DNA of 64,000 nt from a virus. A program made the translations under genes and the position numbers. The notes under the pieces were generated by a model. It saw only the letters and a program-made list of their open reading frames with translations. It searched no databases and had not been told where the DNA came from. Location: positions 1 to 64,000 of IMG/VR virus record IMGVR_UViG_3300046694_000315, one strand, 5' to 3'. This document shows, one piece after another, positions 10,905 through 58,261 of this stretch. How positions within the stretch are numbered: position 1 is the stretch's first letter; each line of letters starts with the position of its first letter.

Positions 10905-12815
10905 TCAGGAAAGCGCGCCCCAGACAGTACCGTTCGCCACGTTCGTAATGCTGTTGACCGTGATGGACCCCGGCATCGAGGCAAGGCCCGAGCCATAGGC
11001 GCCGAATCGGTAGTTGGCCGGAGTCAGGTTCACGTTGGTGACACCGGTAACGACGCTGGCTCCACGGGCGACGGACGGCATGGTTGTGCCGCCCGACACG
11101 AGATAGGCAATCCAGTACGCACCCGGTGCGAGCGAGTGCGAGACGGCCATCGGAGCCGACTTCGCGCCGGTCGACTGCATGCTCGTTGAGACGTCGGAAC
11201 TCTGGTCGATGAGCACTCCGGCGCTCGTGTAGAGGCCGATGTACGTACCGGTCAGCGCTGCACCCGCACCCGAGACGACCCACCAGAAGGTGGAGACGGT
11301 CTTCGTCGTGCGCAGGAACACCTTGGACAGAGCCAGCGCGCCGGACGACAGCGTGACTGCCGTAGGGCCGCAGGTGGCCGGGTCCTGAGTCCAGGTGGCC
11401 AGACCGTGGTCGGACGGCAGGGCGAAGCCGCCTGCGGACAGGTCGAGCGCCGAGACGTCTGCGGCGGTCAGCGTGATGCTGGCGCCGCTCTTGCCGTTGA
11501 CCGTGGTCGGGTTTCCCTGGGGCCCGGTCGCTCCTGTAGGGCCTGGGTCTCCCTGCGGGCCCTGGACACCCTGAATGCCCTGCGGACCGGTCGTGCCGGT
11601 ATCGCCCTTGGGACCCTGCGGCCCGGTGGCACCAGCGGGACCTTGTGCTCCCGTAGCCCCGGTGTCTCCGGTGTCGCCCTTCGTCCCTTGCGCTCCCGTA
11701 GGGCCGGGAACGCCCTGCGGCCCCTGGGGGCCCTGCGGACCGGGCACCGTGGAGTCAGCACCTGCCGGGCCTTGTGGACCGGTTGCGCCCTGTGCTCCGG
11801 CCGCTCCGGTGTCACCCTTCAGACCCTGGATACCCTGCGGGCCTTGCGGACCGGGATCACCTTGCGGTCCCTGGGCTCCGGTCGATCCGGTCGCTCCGGT
11901 GTCGCCCTTGACGCCCTGTGCGCCTTGCGGCCCGGTGTCGCCCTGGAGTCCCTGGGGACCGGGGTCACCCTGAATGCCCTGTGGGCCGGGCGCTCCCTGC
12001 GGGCCTGCTGCTCCCGTGTCACCCTTCGGTCCCTGGAGTCCTGCGAGGCCCTGCGGACCTTGCGGTCCGGTCTCCCCTGGGATCCCCTGGTCGCCCTTGG
12101 GTCCGGCGATCCCCTGGATGCCCTGGGGGCCCTGAGCGCCGTCCGCTCCCGTATCGCCCTTTGGCCCCTGGGGCCCGACCTCGCCCTGAAGTCCGGTCGC
12201 GCCTGTGTCACCCTTCGGTCCCTGGATGCCCTGGAGTCCCTGCGGGCCCTGCGGACCGGGCACCGTGGAGTCGGCGCCAGCAGGACCCTGCGGACCGACC
12301 GCACCCTGTGGGCCCTGCGGTCCGGTTACTCCCGGGTCGCCCTTGTCTCCCTTGTCGCCCTTGGGGGCCGGAGGCATGTTCAGCGCGCCCATGGAGGACG
12401 GGACCTTGAGGAGGGATGCCACCTCCACGTTCGGCACGATCGCGGGCAGCCCGACGTCGAACGGCTTCTGCGTCTGGCCGTCCACGATGCCGGTGAACTT
12501 GTAGGTGAAGTTTCGCGGGGAGAGCGAGCCGTTGTCGCTGGCGAGAAGCGTGACGGAGTACCGGCCGTTGAGGAGGTCGATCTCCTTGCGGCGCAGGCGG
12601 ATAACGGCACCTGTCGCGGGGTGCACCAGTTTCGATATGGAGGGGTCGATGTTGATGCGACCGGAGGCGGGCCTGCCGTCGTTGTCGAGGTGATATCCGG
12701 TGACGGTGACCGTGGCGACGTCGTCCGGGAGTTCCGTGGGAGGCACGTATACGCCGCCCTCTGGCCAGTTTTCATTCTGGACGGTGAAGCCCGGAATGGA
12801 CCATGCGTCGTTCAA
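10905..12815 (-). CDS. Collagen-like (Gly-X-Y) fibre protein
   Basis: Long central G-X-Y repeat region (about 11500-12370) between N- and C-terminal globular domains. Confidence 0.85.
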
Positions 12816-15630: not shown

Positions 15631-16707
15631 CTACTGTGCCCGGCGCAGCGGGACGACGTTCTCCTGGCTGACCATCGCGGTCAGGAAGGCCTTGCCCTTC
15701 ATGGTCTCGTCGCGGCGCCTGCGCTCCGAGGACAGGCCCAGGTAGCGCTCGGTGGTGGCCATGTTCGAGTGGTGCAGCAGGGCCGAGACCGTGCGGAGCC
15801 CGGCGTCGTAGCCCAGTTCCGTGGACAGAGAGTCGAAGTACGCGCGGGCGACCGCCCGGCGGATGGTGTGCGTGCCCTCGTAGCGGGTGGGCAGCCCCAC
15901 GGCCGCGAGCGCGTGCTTGACGATCTTCTCTGTGCGCTGGACAGGCCGGTCTGGGTGCCAGACGAAAGGTGTGCGGACGTAGACCCGCTGGCCGGTCGCC
16001 TCGTCGAGGTAGTGGGTGGAGATGGTGTTCCCCGTGCGGGCAGGGAACAGGTAGTCGTCGGCGCGTAGCGGGCGGCCCAGCAGCTCGGCGTACTCGACCA
16101 GCCACAGGCGCAGCTCGCGCTCCAGGTCGGCCGTCAGCGGCATCTCGTCCTCCTCCCGCGTCTTGACCACGGTCACGAAGACTTCCGACCGCACGAAGTC
16201 GACGTCCCCGACGCGCATGCCCGTGATCTCCGAGGCCCGGCAGGCGGTGTTGATCGCGGTGGCCAGGTAGGCACGGTGCATCGCGCACTCCGCCTGGTCC
16301 AGGAGCTGGAGCAGAAGCGAGGGTGGAGGCTGCTGGCGGCGCTTCTTCGGCTCCGGCAGCGGCTCGACGCCGGTCAGGTAGTTGTCCAGCGCGGTGAATC
16401 CGCTGTTCTTGCAGTAGGTGAAGAACACCTTGAGCCGGGCGCGGTAGTTGTTGTGGGTGCTGGGGCCGACGGCCTCGCGGATCGGCTGGCCCTTGATGCG
16501 GGTGGAGTGGGCGTCCATGATCCCGCCCGGCCCGTAGAAGAAGTCACGCACCTGCTTGGCGGAGAGCTGGGAGAAGTCGGGGTTGCCCAGGTGCTCGGCG
16601 AACCGGGGCAGCAAGGTGGTGTCGACGCGCATGGTGTTGTCGGCCTTGCCGGAGCGCTCCCGGGTCTCCAGGTACTCCTCGACGGCGCTGCGCAGTGCGA
16701 TGGTCAC
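15631..16707 (-). CDS. Tyrosine recombinase / integrase
   Basis: Catalytic set R (TACRASE), K (VVKT), HxxR (HTIRR), H (LLHHS) and Y (TERYL). AAGGAGG precedes GTG 16707. Confidence 0.92.
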   Translation of the reverse strand: MTIALRSAVEEYLETRERSGKADNTMRVDTTLLPRFAEHLGNPDFSQLSAKQVRDFFYGPGGIMDAHSTRIKGQPIREAVGPSTHNNYRARLKVFFTYCKNSGFTALDNYLTGVEPLPEPKKRRQQPPPSLLLQLLDQAECAMHRAYLATAINTACRASEITGMRVGDVDFVRSEVFVTVVKTREEDEMPLTADLERELRLWLVEYAELLGRPLRADDYLFPARTGNTISTHYLDEATGQRVYVRTPFVWHPDRPVQRTEKIVKHALAAVGLPTRYEGTHTIRRAVARAYFDSLSTELGYDAGLRTVSALLHHSNMATTERYLGLSSERRRRDETMKGKAFLTAMVSQENVVPLRRAQ

Positions 16708-16812
16708 GCTTCCTCCTTGTGTGGTGGCTGCGGGTCTGACTCTATCGTCGTCAAGTGCATACATCAAGTCGCTTGCATAGCGATTCCGAGGAATCGATAG
16801 TACGGTTCCCGT

Positions 16813-16959
16813 ATGACGATGACAGAGATCAGCCCGGCACCGCTTCATACTTCCGCCCCGACAGCAGAGGAGGCGTGGCTGGCCGCATGGACGGCCCGAG
16901 CGCCCGTCCTGGAGCCCGAGAAGGCCGACGAGGTCCTGGAGTTGATGGGCCTGCTCTAG
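16813..16959 (+). CDS. Small RDF-like protein, 48 aa (not in the ORF track)
   Basis: MTMTEISPAPLHTSAPTAEEAWLAAWTARAPVLEPEKADEVLELMGLL. Followed by a terminator hairpin; similar to 18698..18823. Confidence 0.6.
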   Translation: MTMTEISPAPLHTSAPTAEEAWLAAWTARAPVLEPEKADEVLELMGLL

Positions 16960-17005: not shown

Positions 17006-18550
17006 CTACGCGGCGAAGATCGGCTCTATCCTCGCGGGGTCGAAACCGCCGCCCCTCTTACCGTCCCGCGCGGGGTGGATGACCACTGCGGTCAGGACGG
17101 TGCGGGCCACGATGCGCTGACGCTCGACCGACATGCCATCCCAGCCGACGCGCAGCAGCTCGGGAGTGACGGCCCGGACGGCGGCAGGGGCCGAGTAGGC
17201 GCGCAGGGCGCGGAGGTCCTTCTTCTCGGCCTCCAGGTCGTCGAGGGTCGTCATGTAGGTGACGGCCTTGACCTTCTTCGCATCCCACAGGACCTTGATG
17301 TCCTTGATCTCCTGCTCGACCTCGGCCAGTCGGGCCTCCTTCTCCGGCGTCCAGTCGCTGTGAACCTGCTCGGGAACCTTCTTCTCCTTCGTGGACTTCT
17401 CCACGATGTTCCAGATCAGCTTCTTGATGAGTTCGTCGACCCGGGGGCCGGTGACGCCCATCCGCCCGCAGGCGTCGGGGTTGGAGGAGGTCTTGTTGCA
17501 GTTGTAGCCGAAGGAGTCGGACTTCTTTCCCCGGATCCATACGGGCTTTCCGACCATGGGGTATCCGCACCGGCCGCAGCGGCAGATCCGGGACAGGAAG
17601 TACTTCACCGCCACCTTCTGGTCGTAGGCGGCGTAGTTACGCGGCTGGGCCTTCTCTCGCTCCTTCTTCGCGCCCAGGACGGCCTCGTACTTCTCTACCG
17701 GGCAGAGCGGCTCCCACGGGCCCATGACGTAATTGCCTTCGGCGTCGTACTGCACCTCTCCGAGGTATATACGGATCCCGGCGTTGCGCGGTCGCATGAT
17801 GATCGTCTTCACACCGGCCCACGTGTAGGGCTTTCCGGTGTCCTTGTTGAGCACGCCGGAGTCGAGGAAGAACTTGGCGATGGTGGTGTTCTTGTCTCCG
17901 GCGATGTACATGTCCATCGCCTTGTTGACGATGTCCTTGGCTACCGGGTCGACCTTGTCCCTGTCCTCTTCCATCCAGCCGTAGGGGTGCGTGCCGCCGT
18001 GGTAGCGCCCCTTTTCGGCACGGTACTTGTTGTCACGTTTGATTCGCCGGGAGGTGTCCTCGGAGGACTTATTGGCGATGGAGACGTAGAGGCGTGCGGA
18101 GAACCGGCCGTCGGAAGTGGTGAGGTCGAAGTTCTGTCCGGAGAGGGTGTCGAAGACCAGCCGCTTCTTCTTCCTCTCGATGAAGTCCTCGTAGACGTCG
18201 ATGTACTTCTCAAGGTCGCGCGGCTGGCGAGCGAACCGGTCGATGTCGTAGGCGAGGACTCCGGCGATGCGCTCGGCCTTGAGGTCGGCGAGCATGCGGA
18301 GGAAGTCCACGCGCTTGACGTTGCGCTTGAAGGCGGACAGCCGGTGGTCCTCGTACCAGACCACGGTGCGCTCGTGCTTCTCGGCGAGGAAACGCAGGTC
18401 CTCCTTCTGCTTGACAATCGCCTTGCGCTCCTCCTCGGCGGCCTCCTCCTCGGTGATGCGACCGGCCTTCACGGCCCGCCGGAGTTCAGCTACGTCCACG
18501 TCAGAGATGCGGAGGTAGCCCCCCAACGGGCGGTCGTCCCTGATACCCAC
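17006..18550 (-). CDS. int: Large serine recombinase (integrase)
   Basis: YLRIS catalytic Ser, DRFAR, recombinase domain, Zn ribbon (CRCGRC...YNC...C) and coiled coil. Start is uncertain. Confidence 0.92.
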   Translation of the reverse strand: MGIRDDRPLGGYLRISDVDVAELRRAVKAGRITEEEAAEEERKAIVKQKEDLRFLAEKHERTVVWYEDHRLSAFKRNVKRVDFLRMLADLKAERIAGVLAYDIDRFARQPRDLEKYIDVYEDFIERKKKRLVFDTLSGQNFDLTTSDGRFSARLYVSIANKSSEDTSRRIKRDNKYRAEKGRYHGGTHPYGWMEEDRDKVDPVAKDIVNKAMDMYIAGDKNTTIAKFFLDSGVLNKDTGKPYTWAGVKTIIMRPRNAGIRIYLGEVQYDAEGNYVMGPWEPLCPVEKYEAVLGAKKEREKAQPRNYAAYDQKVAVKYFLSRICRCGRCGYPMVGKPVWIRGKKSDSFGYNCNKTSSNPDACGRMGVTGPRVDELIKKLIWNIVEKSTKEKKVPEQVHSDWTPEKEARLAEVEQEIKDIKVLWDAKKVKAVTYMTTLDDLEAEKKDLRALRAYSAPAAVRAVTPELLRVGWDGMSVERQRIVARTVLTAVVIHPARDGKRGGGFDPARIEPIFAA

Positions 18551-18697
18551 TCCTCGTACCCCAGCTTCAGCTACCCTTGTCAAACGGTCTGGGGTACACC
18601 CTAGACGAAGCGTATGTAGTTCTGTCAAAGTTGGGACATGCGGAGTTCGACGTAACTCCGTACAGCGGACAGGCAGTCGACAGAGAGGTGACCTGCA

Positions 18698-18823
18698 ATG
18701 ATGACGGACAGCGACTGGATCGCTCACTGGGTGTCAGCGGCCCCGACCCTCAGCTCCGAGGTCCTGGAGACCATCGCCGACGCCGTCGAGGCAGAGGACG
18801 ACGAGGAACTGCTGGCAGCCTGA
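18698..18823 (+). CDS. Small RDF-like protein, 41 aa (not in the ORF track)
   Basis: GAGGTG RBS; MMTDSDWIAHWVSAAPTLSSEVLETIADAVEAEDDEELLAA. A hairpin follows at 18832-18869. Confidence 0.6.
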   Translation: MMTDSDWIAHWVSAAPTLSSEVLETIADAVEAEDDEELLAA

Positions 18824-29355: not shown

Positions 29356-29401
29356 TTGCGCCGGAGGGTTTTCAGGCCCTCCGGCCTTTCCTACGTGAAG
29401 C

Positions 29402-29899
29402 CTACTTCACGGTGTAGCGGCCGTAGTAAACGGACTTCGTCCAGGGCTTGTAGTAGTTGACACCCCTGCCCGGCCGCTCGCTTTCCAGCCAGGTGTGGGA
29501 ATTGACGTATATACCGACGTGGTAGACGTAGCCGCGCGAGTCGTGGGCGAAGACGAGGTCCCCGGCCCGGGGGCTCTTGACGTGCAGGCTGTGCCTGTAC
29601 TGGTCGTTCGCGACCCGGGGAATACTCTTCCCCAGCTTCTTCAGGGTGTACTGGGTCAGGCCCGAGCAGTCGAACCCCCTGGACGGCGAGGATCCTCCCC
29701 ACACGTACCGGACTCCCTTGTACTTGGCGCCCTGCTTCACGATCTTCGTTCCGGACGACACCGTAGTGGTGGACTTTACGGCGACCGGTACGGCGATCTT
29801 CGTGGATGCGACCGGCGTATTCGCCTGCGCGCTTGATGTAGCGAGCGGGGAAAATGCCAGGGCCGCAGCGAGCAGAAGTCCAGCGATCCTCTTATTCAT
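29402..29899 (-). CDS. Secreted NlpC/P60 peptidoglycan endopeptidase
   Basis: Signal peptide MNKRIAGLLLAAALA...AQA; YVWGG, FDCSGL, PR.A..Q, GDLVF and HVGIY. Confidence 0.93.
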   Translation of the reverse strand: MNKRIAGLLLAAALAFSPLATSSAQANTPVASTKIAVPVAVKSTTTVSSGTKIVKQGAKYKGVRYVWGGSSPSRGFDCSGLTQYTLKKLGKSIPRVANDQYRHSLHVKSPRAGDLVFAHDSRGYVYHVGIYVNSHTWLESERPGRGVNYYKPWTKSVYYGRYTVK

Positions 29900-29911
29900 G
29901 ACAGCACTCCG

Positions 29912-30040
29912 CACGCTTACGAGATTAGGTGACGGGCTCGGGTAAGTGCCTTTCCCTACCACAAATAGCTCTGCGGATTCGCCCCAAAAGATTCGGTCTC
30001 CCGCCCCTGTTCAGGGTTGAGTTCAGGATTTGTCCAGGAA
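29912..30040 (-). promoter_or_regulatory. ydaO/yuaA-type (c-di-AMP) riboswitch
   Basis: Minus strand reads AATCC...GGGAGACC...TTTTGGGGCGAATCC...GGTAGGG...CCCGAGCCCGTCACCTAATCTCGTAAGCG directly before the GGAG RBS of the NlpC/P60 gene. Confidence 0.8.
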
Positions 30041-30063
30041 CAGGGCTCAGCGTCTGGACAAAG

Positions 30064-30136
30064 TGGCCCCCTCTGGAATCGCACCAGAATCTCCCGCTTT
30101 TCAGGCGGGCGCATTAACTGCCTCTGCCAAAGGGCC
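30064..30136 (-). tRNA. tRNA-Phe(GAA), atypical T-loop
   Basis: Acceptor GGCCCTT/GGGGGCC, anticodon arm CCCGC-CTGAAAA-GCGGG, T-loop TGCGATT. Confidence 0.8.
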
Positions 30137-30142
30137 GTGAAG

Positions 30143-30216
30143 TCTGGACGGCAGGATTTGAACCTGCGATCTCCTGATCCCAAATCAGGCGCGCTACCGG
30201 GCTGCGCTACGTCCAG
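30143..30216 (-). tRNA. tRNA-Pro(UGG)
   Basis: C1-G72, A73, loop TTTGGGA, GGTTCAAATCC. Confidence 0.95.
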
Positions 30217-30620
30217 AAGTTGATGTCTTCGACACTACCGTATCAGGGATACCCGTTGTCAAGCCACAAACTGAATTAGCTTGCATTGGGCGGGAAGAGT
30301 TCCCCGCCGGGTCTTACGCGGTCGCGTCACGGCGACGGCAGCCCGGTCAGGCGGGGAACGGGAAACGGCCGAGGCAGAACGCCTGCAAGGCCGGGATGAG
30401 CGCGGGCATGCTGGCGGAGGGGAGGTGGTTCCCCTGGCCCGGCCGTCGCTCGCTCATCGTGTTCATGCATCCATTGAAGCGGATCACGACTACGGGTTTG
30501 TAATCGCTTCCGGCCACTGCCTGAATGCCTCGTGCGAGGCGGGGGGTAGGACACTGTCCGGACATAGCGGAAGGGGCCGGGGGATGTTCTCCCTCGACCC
30601 CTTCGGAACGACAGTCAGCT

Positions 30621-30986: not shown

Positions 30987-31119
30987 AACTCACTCCTTAA
31001 CAACGCCACCTCCGGTTGCGCCGCGCAGCAACCTGCCAACGGTCGCAATACTGCTACCTGACTACGGCTTCTGTCAAGCGGATGCACTGTGACGCTCGAC
31101 AAGCCGGATTCAGGAAGCA

Positions 31120-32476: not shown

Positions 32477-33346
32477 TCAGAAGGCTCCAGGAGCCACCTG
32501 AAGGCACCGCAGACCGAGCAGGCGCCACATCTCCACGACCTGGTCACGGTCGTCGAGGACGAACCACACGTTGTAGAACGGCTCGATCTTCGCCCGGTAG
32601 ATCTCCTCCTTGACGACCGAGTCCTTGCGCATGTCGTCTGGCGCCCGCATGTGCAGGTACGCCTCCCGCGTCCACTTGCCCACGTGCAGTTCCAGCCAGG
32701 CCCGCGTCTGGTCGTAGCAGCAGCCGTCACGGCCGGACAGGAACACGATCTCCGCGCCGCTGTCCCGCAGGGTGTTCACCAGGTCGATGACCTCGCTGAT
32801 CGGCTCGTCCTCGCCGACCCGGTCCCACTCGAACGGGCTGCGGCCGACCATCCGCGCCAGCGTGCCGTCGATGTCGACCAGGACCATGTTCGGCTTCGCC
32901 GGGTCGTACGGGGGCGCCTCGGCAGGCTTCGGGGCCAGGTACTGGTTGTACATGTCCCGGATGACCTTCTCGCCGACGCTCCGATCCCGCTGGAGGTCAC
33001 GCTTGATGCAGGTATGAAGCGGCACGGCCGTGTGGTCGGAGACCTTGAACTCCGCACCGTGGTACGCGGCCAGCCGCCGCAGTTCCTTCTCGTGGTTGGG
33101 GTTGAGGTTGGTGTCGTCCACGATGACGCTCACGCCGTCGCCCAGGAACGCCTCGACGAGGGCGTTGCGGGCCCGCACGACCCGGCGTTCGTTCTTCCCG
33201 TGCCAGACGCTGTCGTGCAGCATCGTGCGCAGGTCGTCCTTGTTGATCCGGACCAGCGTGCCGGGCTGGGCCTTGGCCACGATCCGCTTCGCCTCGGTGC
33301 TCTTGCCGGAGCCGGGCAGTCCCTTGGTCATGGTCAGCGTCAGCAT
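32477..33346 (-). CDS. pseT: Polynucleotide kinase / 3'-phosphatase (T4 PseT-like)
   Basis: P-loop GLPGSGKST, D.TN, HAD motif DIDGTL, SGR and DDR. Confidence 0.93.
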   Translation of the reverse strand: MLTLTMTKGLPGSGKSTEAKRIVAKAQPGTLVRINKDDLRTMLHDSVWHGKNERRVVRARNALVEAFLGDGVSVIVDDTNLNPNHEKELRRLAAYHGAEFKVSDHTAVPLHTCIKRDLQRDRSVGEKVIRDMYNQYLAPKPAEAPPYDPAKPNMVLVDIDGTLARMVGRSPFEWDRVGEDEPISEVIDLVNTLRDSGAEIVFLSGRDGCCYDQTRAWLELHVGKWTREAYLHMRAPDDMRKDSVVKEEIYRAKIEPFYNVWFVLDDRDQVVEMWRLLGLRCLQVAPGAF

Positions 33347-33399
33347 CGTCACGGGCTTCTCCTTGTTCTTCGGGCCGCAGCACCTGCACTTGTAGGTGC

Positions 33400-33699
33400 T
33401 CACTGGCAGCACCCGTCGCAGCCGTGCAGGCCCTCGTAGGGGTGGTAGTCCTCGCCCTGGATCAGGCGCTTGTAGGCGAGGTCGTCCGGGTCGGGGTGAC
33501 CCACGCCGTGGGGACAGGTCCGCTCCATCAGCGCCCGGTCCATGCGGAAGTGCTGGGGGAAGGCGGCCATGGAGTGGGCGGAGGGGTTGTGAACGCAGCA
33601 GTGGCGGCCGATGCAGTCCTTGCGGGGGTGGGCGAGGATCTCCTCCCCGCCCACCAGCTCGGCCCGCTCGAACCACCCGCCGAAGTCGTCGGGCTCCAT
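33400..33699 (-). CDS. Cys/His-rich hypothetical protein
   Basis: CCVHNPS, ERTCPHGVGHPDPD and HGCDGCC; TGATG coupling. Confidence 0.7.
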   Translation of the reverse strand: MEPDDFGGWFERAELVGGEEILAHPRKDCIGRHCCVHNPSAHSMAAFPQHFRMDRALMERTCPHGVGHPDPDDLAYKRLIQGEDYHPYEGLHGCDGCCQ

Positions 33700-34799
33700 C
33701 AGGCAGCCGCCTCCGGGACCGACGCGAACGGGACCTCGTAGGCGGGCTTGACCCGCTTCCACACCCGCGAGGTGATGTCCTGGCCGCCGTACAGGCCGAA
33801 CAGGATGTCCCTGTAGGGGCTCTCGCAGGCCAGGAGGGCGAACTCCTTGCGGCGCTTCTGCGCGTCGTCCTCCGGCCTCACCAGGCGGCGCAGGATCCAG
33901 TCGAACTCCTCGCGTGCCTCCACCAGGGTGTCGGTGTAGGCCGCCTGCAAGGCGCTGACCTTCGCGCGGACCCAGTCGTAGAACTCGTCCGGGACGCTGT
34001 CGATGATCGCCTCGATCCCGTCGCCCTCGACCAGCGCCTCCCACAGGGTGAGCGTCGAGGTGTTCGTCAGGATGCGGTGCAGCCGCACGTACTCGTCGAA
34101 CTTGAACTTCACCCGCAGGTCGTGGCCGGGGAAGTGGACGACGAAGCCCTCCTGGTTCTCCTCCTGCGGCGCCGCCAGCACCTCGGAGAGGGACTCGAAG
34201 CCGACCGGCTGGTTGACCGGCCCCGGCCAGTCGTAGGGCCCCCACGGCAGCGAGCGACCGGTCTGGGTGTCGACCACCGCGAGCAGGACCAGGTCGTCCA
34301 GGCCCTTGTAGTCGACGACGATCCGGTTGGACGGGAAGACGATCTCGAAGAGGTACGTCAGACCCAGGATCGGCTCGAACGTCGGGTAGCGCGTCTCCAG
34401 GATCTTGTTCGCGTGCTGCGCCTGCGGGCTGGTGAAGGAGCCCCGCGTGGCGATGCGGAACTCCCCGGTATGAAGCAGGTAGCCGACGCCCAAGGAGCCG
34501 TCCCACTTCACGTACGTCTTGACCGGCTCGTTGATCAGTCGCGCCTGCTGGTCGGCGGGGATCTGCGACCAGTTGAAGAACTTCTCGAACGGCCGGGCCA
34601 CGACCTTCTCGGTGGTCGTGTCGATGATCAGACCCCGGGTCTTCTTGGTGACCTCGTTCCACTCGTTGTCGAACTGCGCCTTGTTCGTGTAGTTGAAGAT
34701 GGCCCGGCTGCCGTCGGGGTGGGTCTGGTGGCGGACGTAGCCCTTGGTGATGTTGTCGAGCAGGGCCTTCTCCGGAAGGACGTCGTACAGGTGCACCAT
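33699..34799 (-). CDS. RNA ligase (T4 Rnl1 family)
   Basis: RGLI, RPF.KFFN, motif I KWDGS, FE, EGFV and RVKFK. Confidence 0.92.
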   Translation of the reverse strand: MVHLYDVLPEKALLDNITKGYVRHQTHPDGSRAIFNYTNKAQFDNEWNEVTKKTRGLIIDTTTEKVVARPFEKFFNWSQIPADQQARLINEPVKTYVKWDGSLGVGYLLHTGEFRIATRGSFTSPQAQHANKILETRYPTFEPILGLTYLFEIVFPSNRIVVDYKGLDDLVLLAVVDTQTGRSLPWGPYDWPGPVNQPVGFESLSEVLAAPQEENQEGFVVHFPGHDLRVKFKFDEYVRLHRILTNTSTLTLWEALVEGDGIEAIIDSVPDEFYDWVRAKVSALQAAYTDTLVEAREEFDWILRRLVRPEDDAQKRRKEFALLACESPYRDILFGLYGGQDITSRVWKRVKPAYEVPFASVPEAAA

Positions 34800-56722: not shown

Positions 56723-58261
56723 CTAACCTTCCTGGTTGATGTAAGTTGGTACGTCGACGATTTCGGCGTCGATGAAACCGGTAGAGGCTTCGATCATCCG
56801 GTCCGCCGAGAGAGGCCTGTCGAGCGCTGTCATCTGTTCCCCGGCGTCCCGGCCGAAGATACGGCTGATCATACCGGCCCCGCCGCCATTCCCCTTAGCC
56901 TCCAGTTTCACGGAGAAGGAGTCCTGCTCCAGTTCCGTCTTCACCTTCACGAGTTTCTGGAGCCGGTCGATCTCGCCGGAGAGGTTCGGATCCGCGTAGC
57001 CACCGGTCATATCCTCGACCATCTTCATGAAGAGGACCCGCTGCGCCTGCATCTCGATGAGCGAGTTCTGGAGCGACTGCATCTGCTGCTTGCTCTTCAC
57101 TTCGACCGGGATGTCGTACGCGCAGTTGGCATTCTGGTCGAAGGCCGGGCACTTCGAGGACAGGAAGCAGGACGAGCAGGCGCGCATGGACTGGCTGCGC
57201 ACGGTCAGGAGGGGGATGTCCCGCTCCTTGTTCACGCCGTCCTCGGGGTCGGTGTAGACCTCCTTCTCCTGCACCAGGCCGATGACCGGCAAGTTGGTAC
57301 GCGGGCGGTCTCTGCGGACGGCCGGAGTTGTCACCGGGTTGAGCGTTTTTCCGTCCTCCGTACCAACTTCGGTGCCCTGCATTTGAGAGAAACTCGAAAG
57401 TACCCCTCCGGCAGAAGTAGTAACTGCTTGGGCTTCCTGCGGCCGGTGCTGGTCGATCGAGGCCGCCAACTGCTGCCACGACCAGATGGTGAACCGCAGG
57501 ACCTCGTCGTTCTCTCCGGCCTCGATACGGTCGGCGTCGAAGCCCGCTTCGGTGAACAGAGTGCGGTGCCTTTTCCGCGCCTGGTCCTTGTACTTCTTCG
57601 GGTAGCGCTTCAATTCCCGGCCGGTCCACACAATGGTGTCACCGTACTGGGAAGGGGAAAGCCAGGACGTCGAGGCGACGCTGTCCCAGTTCACGGCAGC
57701 CATTTCCGCAGGCTTAGTCATGGCCACTCCGTGGAGTAGCGTGCCGTATTTCCGGGTGATCTCGTTGAGAACCGGGGTGAGATTCCGGCCGTCGAGATCC
57801 GTCTGCGTCACACCGACCCGCTTATACCTCTGGGCGAGTTTATCGAGTTCGTCGACTCCCCATTCCGAATGCCATATCGGAAGGAACTTGTCTTCCGGCA
57901 GGTCCTCGTAGAAGTCCTCTCGCCGGGCCTCGATCCATTCCCGTCCGAGAACGACAGCGTCGAACTCGGACACCATATGAAGGGAATCGATATTCTGCTG
58001 GACGAACGCTTCGTAATGCGCGGCGATGTCCTTCAGTTCGCCGATCGAGTACTTGTCGTCGTCGGCCTTGTTGACCGTGTAGGCGCCGGAGTCCAGGAAC
58101 ACCTTCTGGTTTTCGAGGTAGTTGTCCTCGATCAGCCAGGGGCGGGTGAACTTGGTCCGGCGCCGCAGGCCCATGTACGAGAGGGAGACGGTTTCGACGC
58201 CTTCCTCGGCCAGCATCTTGCGCCAGCCGGGAATCTCGGATCCGCCGAGGAAGAGGTGCAC
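56723..58261 (-). CDS. TGT/DpdA-like TIM-barrel domain fused to a Cys4 + helical C-terminal domain
   Basis: FLDSGAY, EFD, P.WH, HG.A.T and DSVASTSW, then CSSC.L...CP.F.....C.Y. Confidence 0.65.
   Translation of the reverse strand: MHLFLGGSEIPGWRKMLAEEGVETVSLSYMGLRRRTKFTRPWLIEDNYLENQKVFLDSGAYTVNKADDDKYSIGELKDIAAHYEAFVQQNIDSLHMVSEFDAVVLGREWIEARREDFYEDLPEDKFLPIWHSEWGVDELDKLAQRYKRVGVTQTDLDGRNLTPVLNEITRKYGTLLHGVAMTKPAEMAAVNWDSVASTSWLSPSQYGDTIVWTGRELKRYPKKYKDQARKRHRTLFTEAGFDADRIEAGENDEVLRFTIWSWQQLAASIDQHRPQEAQAVTTSAGGVLSSFSQMQGTEVGTEDGKTLNPVTTPAVRRDRPRTNLPVIGLVQEKEVYTDPEDGVNKERDIPLLTVRSQSMRACSSCFLSSKCPAFDQNANCAYDIPVEVKSKQQMQSLQNSLIEMQAQRVLFMKMVEDMTGGYADPNLSGEIDRLQKLVKVKTELEQDSFSVKLEAKGNGGGAGMISRIFGRDAGEQMTALDRPLSADRMIEASTGFIDAEIVDVPTYINQEG

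Follow-up and report, generated by a model that had tools for sequence, protein, structure and literature searches.

Can a bacteriophage carry a riboswitch for a second messenger of its host, and what would such a switch control? The question is raised by a locus in the first 64,000 nucleotides (nt) of the virus record IMGVR_UViG_3300046694_000315 of the IMG/VR database, a stretch that we call the window and to which coordinates refer unless another contig is named. Here, a leader RNA of the ydaO/yuaA type, the class associated with cyclic di-AMP (c-di-AMP), precedes nlpC, a gene for an NlpC/P60 peptidase, in the midst of a cluster of transfer RNA (tRNA) genes. All parts of this riboswitch module lie on the minus strand. 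Taken as a whole, the locus is best read, with moderate confidence, as a c-di-AMP riboswitch in the tRNA operon of a temperate Streptomyces myophage, which would switch its gene OFF via translation and which probably entered the phage as a cassette captured from the host.

Riboswitch family and aptamer structure

The whole window was searched against Rfam 15 with cmscan. RF00379, the c-di-AMP (ydaO/yuaA leader) family, matched at 30033..29900 on the minus strand with 68.0 bits (E 1.2e-13) and over the full model (positions 1-134); the gathering score of the family is 38 bits. This match establishes the family identity of the RNA. It is the single RF00379 match in the whole phage genome. The core blocks GGGGYGAAUC, GUAGGG, CCCGARCCCGUCAGCUAA and CUCG...GCG are all present, with one consensus G replaced by C (29929). 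The original prediction, made from the letters of the DNA, had placed a ydaO-type leader between tRNA-Phe and tRNA-Leu, touching the ribosome binding site of a signal-peptide NlpC/P60 gene, and had proposed an Infernal search against the Rfam ydaO-yuaA model as a check. The outcome of that search is clearly positive, and together with the calls for tRNAs and open reading frames it bears out the proposed arrangement. Judged by its sequence, the phage-borne RNA is a genuine member of the ydaO/kimA class (RF00379) with c-di-AMP as its predicted ligand, and the phage probably reads this second messenger of its host.

The extent of the aptamer had to be revised. The cmscan alignment flagged two non-canonical pairs in its own P1, and RNAalifold, given the 5' flank, produced a different 5' end. 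Base pairs were counted across first 16 and then 17 distinct copies from the phage lineage, the seventeenth (L079) being the most divergent. In the resulting model, which combines the 68-bit RF00379 match with an extended set of pairs, the aptamer spans 29913..30053 and comprises P1-P3 plus P4-P6, with 98.7-99.4% of the alignment cells paired (16 and 17 copies). P1 (ACGCY/RGCGU) joins 30053-30049 to 29917-29913, the 8-bp P2 joins 30045-30038 to 30012-30005, and P3, placed by pair counting in the lineage copies, joins 30004-29999 to 29924-29919. P1 and P2 are thereby re-assigned 20 nt upstream of their position in the cmscan alignment. This structure is backed by covariation: P1 shows compensatory changes among the 17 copies (CG in 10, UG in 4, UA in 3), as does P2 (UA, CG, UG and AU), and P6 also covaries. 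The P1 drawn by cmscan itself (AACU/AGCG) and its short P2 were rejected; that P1 is paired in 51.6% of cells, while the upstream P1 and the long P2 covary.

The revised 5' end, CGCUGAG-CCC, corresponds to CGCCGAG-UCC of the Streptomyces host copies, and CGCUGAGCCC is the true homologue of the block GCCGAATCC, with CGCCGAGUCC as its counterpart in the host copies. A U-A to C-G difference between phage (GGGGCGAAU/CCGAGCCCG) and host (GGGGUGAAU/CCGAACCCG) leaves the pairing intact. Two blocks had originally been singled out as departing from the consensus, and only one of them holds up. The first, 'GACAAATCC', had been taken for the P1/J homologue (GCCGAATCC), an assignment that we reject: the block is unconserved and belongs to the variable apical part of P2, where relatives read GACGAACAC, GACAAAAAC or GACAAACTC. 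The second, GUCACCUAA, does contain a C in place of the family-consensus G, at 29929, and this C is invariant in all 17 distinct lineage copies. The end of the element, initially set at 30040, falls short, as P1 runs to 30053 and a conserved 5' hairpin to 30062.

This 5' hairpin, here called S1, occupies 30029..30062 and thus the first 34 nt of the leader. It consists of 9 bp, formed by UUUGUCCAG (30062-30054) and CUGGACAAA (30037-30029), and a 16-nt loop that contains the 5' strands of both P1 and P2, so that S1 crosses these two helices. In the 17 copies 99.3% of its cells are paired, with two compensatory pairs in L079 (GCGCAG/CUGCGC). The predicted minimum-free-energy fold includes S1, which by itself is worth -9 to -13 kcal/mol. 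The helix is absent from the RF00379 consensus structure line printed by cmscan. Of the 16 host RF00379 leaders taken from two Streptomyces genomes, 8 have an S1-like helix in the same register (L059, L064, L066-L071), among them the leaders of a C40 peptidase of 157-159 amino acids. On this comparison, S1 can be regarded as an inherited feature of a Streptomyces riboswitch subclass. It represents either an alternative fold of the ligand-free RNA or a pseudoknot. A role as a phage-specific device for tRNA processing was also considered and is rejected as its sole function, as the eight S1-bearing host leaders have promoters of their own.

Conservation, phage and operon

Relatives of the locus were gathered in IMG/VR with the peptidase as probe, and then by core-motif scans of IMG/VR, species genomes and metagenomes. 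Eleven IMG/VR contigs carry a peptidase relative that is 51-100% identical, and all eleven have RF00379 directly upstream (58-72 bits) and tRNAs on both sides. Among more distant peptidase loci, of which ten were found and nine scanned (L022 was left out), there was no RF00379 match. The core-motif scans brought the total to 20 IMG/VR contigs, one prophage and the divergent metagenome contig L079. A census of IMG/VR with two core patterns, which catch about one fifth of host copies and are thus incomplete, returned this lineage only, plus L072. The latter is a 'viral' IMG/VR contig from an isolate genome with a 105-bit RF00379 match (12132-12298 of that contig), which precedes a kimA-type amino-acid-permease gene beside a HicB gene; we read it as host flank and rejected it as a phage riboswitch.

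The order of elements is conserved: promoter box, tRNA-Pro, tRNA-Phe, riboswitch, nlpC (with or without a LysM domain), a hairpin, tRNA-Leu(CAA) and tRNA-Asn, with tRNA-His further on in some copies. One copy (L012) has no tRNA-Phe, and its leader directly follows tRNA-Pro. In L079 the leader is preceded by an extra tRNA-like element, and the ARAGORN calls downstream of the leader are tRNA-Asn and tRNA-Gln, with tRNA-Leu missing. This tRNA-like element, of about 100 nt, lies between tRNA-Phe and the riboswitch at approximately 1636-1739 of L079 (minus strand; inferred coordinates) and has an acceptor-like GGAAGGT...ACCTTCC and a T-arm GGAGTTCAAATCCCAC, although ARAGORN makes no call there. In each copy of the module, the leader hairpin begins 1-2 bases past the 3' end of a tRNA. 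Identity among the copies stays at 75-99% in the leader, but in the peptidase, which gains a LysM domain, it drops to about 49-55%. Since the leader outlasts the divergence of the peptidase, the comparison supports selection on the RNA, and because it is so well conserved the riboswitch module is probably functional.

With its length of 106,046 bp, its direct terminal repeats and a completeness of 100% by CheckV, the IMG/VR record represents an entire virus genome. Virion genes in the window comprise those for the large terminase, capsid and tail sheath proteins and for an SPP1-type portal. When 185,579 species genomes were scanned for the core pattern, the module turned up again in Streptomyces sp. 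NPDC002088 (locus L052). BLAST of window segments revealed a co-linear prophage of about 104 kb at ~78.6-183 kb of a 203-kb contig of this strain, 72-84% identical and flanked by host DNA. The junction falls at the recombinase genes, which in the window form a tandem of a tyrosine integrase (15631-16848, minus strand) and a large serine recombinase (17006-18727, minus strand). The virus is thus a complete myophage of ~106 kb, temperate and with Streptomyces as its host genus. The prophage-bearing contig also contains an ordinary host-type RF00379 leader at ~11 kb.

The regulated gene (ATG 29899, stop 29402) encodes an NlpC/P60 (C40) peptidoglycan endopeptidase of 165 amino acids, recognised by PF00877 with 76.9 bits (cut-off 23). 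Its catalytic Cys78 (DCSG) and His127 (YHVGIY) are invariant columns in 11 homologues, which comprise Streptomyces C40 peptidases and proteins on phage-size contigs. The N-terminus is predicted to be a Sec-type signal sequence, with a basic start, a hydrophobic core and ...SSAQA before the mature part. The riboswitch hence sits in the 5' leader of a gene type that belongs to the known regulon in Actinobacteria, the cell-wall hydrolases. No endolysin of the Amidase_2 or GH25 type was found in the phage. A second NlpC/P60 domain lies within an open reading frame of 1015 amino acids at ~102.9-105.9 kb of the phage genome (minus strand; 4873-7920 of L078), probably a lysin associated with the tail or tape measure.

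The module is embedded in an operon of tRNA genes, all on the minus strand and all called by both ARAGORN and the RF00005 model. Upstream of the leader lie tRNA-Pro(UGG) (30142..30216; RF00005 71.5 bits) and tRNA-Phe(GAA) (30063..30136), which does not encode its CCA and whose 3' end touches the riboswitch leader. Downstream of nlpC follow tRNA-Leu(CAA) (29355-29272), tRNA-Asn(GUU) (29207-29134) and tRNA-His(GUG) (29058-28973). These five are the only tRNAs of the phage genome. At 86 nt, the tRNA-His implies a long variable arm, which is unusual in a bacterial-type tRNA-His.

Transcription of the operon would start from a promoter-like region at 30232..30286 (minus strand), with a -35 box TTGACA at 30262-30257, a 19-nt spacer and TAGTGT at 30237-30232. 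TTGACA is invariant in 10 aligned lineage copies, in which TAnnnT is also kept, and L079 has the TTGACA box as well; a strict sigma-70 scan made no call in this region. An operator-like inverted repeat, TGTCAAGC-N14-GCTTGACA (30257-30286, minus strand), overlaps the -35 box. The window has 13 sites of this repeat with up to 3 mismatches, where chance predicts 0.19 (others are at 31072, 32383, 46874, 49817 and 55119, for example), which suggests a common regulator site at many promoters of the phage. With the repeat overlapping the conserved promoter box, it seems that the phage itself controls transcription of the operon, while the host signal comes in at the level of the RNA.

The riboswitch leader itself has no room for a promoter, because the junction reads ...GCCA-C-UUUGUCCAG, with one base between tRNA-Phe and S1. 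In the absence of its own promoter, the 5' end of the riboswitch must come from the processing of the tRNA 3' end. At the other end of the module, a GC-rich hairpin lacking a U tract (29360..29386, minus strand; found by folding) lies between the nlpC stop codon and tRNA-Leu. All 10 copies examined at this junction have such a hairpin, of -18 to -33 kcal/mol, with stems that differ in sequence; a terminator scan reported nothing there.

The operon adjoins genes for an Lsr2-like protein, a polynucleotide kinase-phosphatase, an RNA ligase and an exonuclease. The polynucleotide kinase-phosphatase (PF25109/AAA_33) and the T4 Rnl1-type RNA ligase (32477-34799, minus strand) look like a tRNA-repair pair. 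Between the Lsr2-like gene and the tRNA promoter, a conserved stretch (30330-30520, minus strand) includes a short open reading frame starting ATGAACACGATGAGCG, which is kept in most relatives. Two further genes of the window were noted in passing. One (56723-58261, minus strand; phrog_887, 2.3e-75) resembles DpdA/queuine tRNA-ribosyltransferase and suggests 7-deazaguanine modification of the DNA. The other, between the terminase and portal genes (10905-12815, minus strand), encodes a protein of 636 amino acids with collagen triple-helix repeats (PF01391, 1.7e-42).

Mode of control and competing explanations

The expression platform is short. A Shine-Dalgarno (SD) sequence, GGAG (29910-29907), begins 2 nt after the 3' strand of P1, where the aptamer ends, and is separated by a 7-nt spacer from the AUG (29899-29897); this arrangement (29897..29910) is invariant in all copies. 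The terminator scan found no terminator-like element after the aptamer. An SD sequence 2 nt from P1 is typical of translational platforms. The characterised c-di-AMP riboswitches of this class are OFF elements (PMC9960051, PMC11481543). In Streptomyces, ydaO-like switches act as OFF elements on six to seven wall-hydrolase genes, which are ON at low c-di-AMP (PMC10117811, PMC11481543); the initial suggestion that such switches precede wall-lytic genes such as rpfA agrees with these reports. The nlpC switch of Corynebacterium glutamicum acts on translation and has no terminator (PMC9960051).

From this known behaviour of the family we infer an OFF switch that acts mainly on translation. Binding of c-di-AMP would stabilise the aptamer and close P1, turning the gene OFF, and blocked translation initiation would be the likeliest route, because GGAG lies only 2 nt past P1. 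In the absence of the ligand, S1 may provide the competing fold. The phage peptidase would then be made at low host c-di-AMP, following the same rule as the riboswitch-controlled wall hydrolases of the host.

Several observations speak against this model. Constrained folding shows no clean two-state switch, and the SD sequence is predicted to be partly paired whether or not the aptamer forms. Instead of competing with the folded aptamer, S1 could belong to it as a pseudoknot. A UCC/GGA extension of P1 over the SD sequence exists in the 16 close copies and is broken in the divergent L079; this pairing, P0, which would bury the SD sequence, was dropped as support. The 3' strand of P3 can form a weak hairpin with the SD sequence (-1 to -7.7 kcal/mol, 89% paired, no covariation), which would imply ON logic. 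The core carries a fixed G-to-C change that is rare in cells and may bear on binding. Finally, the rpfA switch of S. coelicolor is reported to act on transcription (PMC10117811).

The last point leads to the main rival explanation, in which the riboswitch acts on RNA synthesis or read-through, either by an rpfA-like attenuation that needs no canonical terminator or by Rho-type polarity on untranslated nlpC, and c-di-AMP gates the supply of tRNA-Leu(CAA), tRNA-Asn and tRNA-His along with the peptidase. Read-through into these three tRNAs is plausible, because nlpC and tRNA-Leu are set apart by just a hairpin: every copy has only this U-less element and 4-8 nt from the stop codon to the tRNA, which leaves no room for a separate promoter. 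Alternatively, a promoter within the 3' end of nlpC may supply the downstream tRNAs. For the rpfA switch of Streptomyces, a decrease in transcript levels has been reported although no canonical terminator is present (PMC10117811, PMC9960051), as this explanation would require. However, the phage leader has no terminator-like element after its aptamer and has its SD sequence directly beside P1, and the C. glutamicum nlpC switch left the downstream gene unaffected (PMC9960051). We regard control at the level of RNA synthesis as possible but rather unlikely. Slightly more doubtful still is a combined device, in which the riboswitch mRNA is cut from a tRNA precursor, with a 5' end left by tRNA 3' processing and a 3' end capped by the hairpin beside tRNA-Leu, attenuation or polarity governed by c-di-AMP gates the peptidase and tRNA-Leu(CAA), tRNA-Asn and tRNA-His, and the rare core base may retune sensing. 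If true, this would be a phage 'eavesdropping' device that couples the envelope or osmotic state of the host to the translation capacity of the phage and to wall remodelling.

An ON switch would result if, without ligand, the 3' strand of P3 paired with UGCGGAGU and hid the SD sequence, which ligand-driven folding of P3 and P1 would then free. The hairpin in question, of 8 bp, can be drawn in most copies at the pairing level and stability given above, and it appears in some minimum-free-energy folds. Yet its covariation is no greater than in shuffles, 11 of the 17 copies have a C-A mismatch in it, and L008 and L079 practically lack it (-1 kcal/mol). With all characterised members of the class being OFF switches (PMC9960051, PMC11481543), ON logic is improbable.

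The core variant at 29929 raises the alternative that the change has altered affinity or specificity, so that the RNA senses another cyclic dinucleotide, or another nucleotide, instead of c-di-AMP. In its favour, the C is fixed throughout the lineage at a position that is upper case in the Rfam consensus, and it is very rare in cellular genomes. In the 185,579 species genomes the C form has 5 matches, whereas with the same pattern the G form (GUCAGCUAA) matches 197 of 201 Streptomyces genomes, with ~330 matches in total (the 201 include one unpublished genome, G132, and the claim holds without it). The 5 C-form matches consist of the prophage, one sequence that is not a member of the family and three otherwise canonical cellular RF00379 members, in Streptomyces, Paenibacillus and Brevibacillus. 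These three stand before ordinary targets, the Streptomyces one before an NlpC/P60-type gene of 471 amino acids. The C variant is therefore rare in cells, yet tolerated in ordinary contexts. As the phage RNA also keeps its remaining core blocks and scores far over the cut-off, we give a change of ligand little credence.

Least probable of all is that the RNA came into the phage together with a captured host gene, senses no ligand and now, as a structured relic, only spaces or stabilises the junction of tRNA and mRNA. A 5' hairpin touching the tRNA and a 3' hairpin closing the mRNA would suit roles in processing or stability. Against this, compensatory changes preserve the whole aptamer core although the coding sequence beside it falls to ~50% identity, and S1 is also found in host leaders with their own promoters.

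Origin, significance and relation to known systems

Where might the phage have obtained its riboswitch? The two Streptomyces genomes that were searched contain 8-9 RF00379 copies each, mostly before genes of the secreted wall-hydrolase type. One of the enzymes encoded behind these leaders, the C40 peptidase of 157-159 amino acids, is 44-47% identical to the phage enzyme. None of the RF00379 copies in the two genomes is a close host donor of the phage RNA. Taken together, the phage cassette was probably captured from a Streptomyces unit of riboswitch and C40 peptidase that belongs to the S1-bearing subclass.

c-di-AMP reflects the osmotic and cell-wall state of the bacterium as well as germination. 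A conserved clade of temperate Streptomyces phages with such an RNA shows that phages can adopt second-messenger circuitry of the host for a wall hydrolase, and in this clade it can conveniently be studied whether phages sense the c-di-AMP of their hosts. An mRNA under riboswitch control that lies among tRNA genes, lacks its own promoter and owes its 5' end to a tRNA is unusual in its mode of expression, and this layout could couple the supply of tRNAs to the signal. Two further findings are of interest to RNA biologists in their own right: the S1 helix, present in half of the host Streptomyces leaders examined, and the G-to-C core variant, rare in cells but tolerated.

The nearest cultured relatives of the phage are the BRock-like Streptomyces myophages (BRock, pSt2308, GiJojo, Alone3 and LuckySocke), with terminases 61-63% identical and genomes of 112-116 kb. 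BRock and pSt2308 encode a similar small NlpC/P60 protein (47-48% identical), which is located among protein-coding genes upstream of the endolysin and not among tRNAs. RF00379 was found in none of seven whole genomes (these five, KimJongPhill and Wakanda) and at none of the NlpC loci of Rainydai, Coruscant and Frankenweenie. A blastn search of the region against 50,697 phage records matched the tRNAs and nothing else, and a literature search found no published report of a c-di-AMP riboswitch in a phage.

Among bacterial systems, the ydaO/kimA riboswitch of Bacillus subtilis is the prototype of RF00379 and belongs to the same covariance-model family as the phage RNA; its expression platform relies on a terminator, and its target is a K+ transporter. 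Closer in several respects is the nlpC riboswitch of C. glutamicum (PMC9960051). As in the phage, an RNA of this family precedes an NlpC/P60 target, there is no canonical terminator and a GGAG lies near the aptamer; this riboswitch, too, has been proposed to be a translational OFF switch. It lies, however, on the chromosome, where it is transcribed from its own promoter as the leader of a protein-coding operon. The phage switch, in contrast, lies within a tRNA operon, has its 5' end set by a tRNA and combines a long P2 and S1 with the rare C variant of the core.

The switches of rpfA and of five to six other hydrolases in Streptomyces (PMC10117811, PMC11481543) share with the phage RNA the host genus, the family and the control of hydrolases that are ON at low c-di-AMP. 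The Streptomyces copies also share the CGCCGAG-type P1/J motif, and half of those examined share S1. They differ in reading GGGGUGAAU/CCGAACCCG and in having the G in GUCAGCUAA, and the rpfA switch has been reported as transcriptional.

Riboswitches are rare in phages, as the original prediction had stated and as McCown et al. 2017 (PMC5473149) describe; the only examples listed there are the c-di-GMP-I (cyclic di-GMP) riboswitches of C. difficile prophages and the glutamine riboswitches that cyanophages carry. Like these, the RNA described here is a host-type switch for a metabolite or second messenger in a phage genome. It differs from them in class, ligand, actinobacterial host and its setting in a tRNA operon. 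What is new is thus the setting of an RF00379 member that is phage-borne, embedded among tRNAs and part of the S1-bearing Streptomyces subclass.

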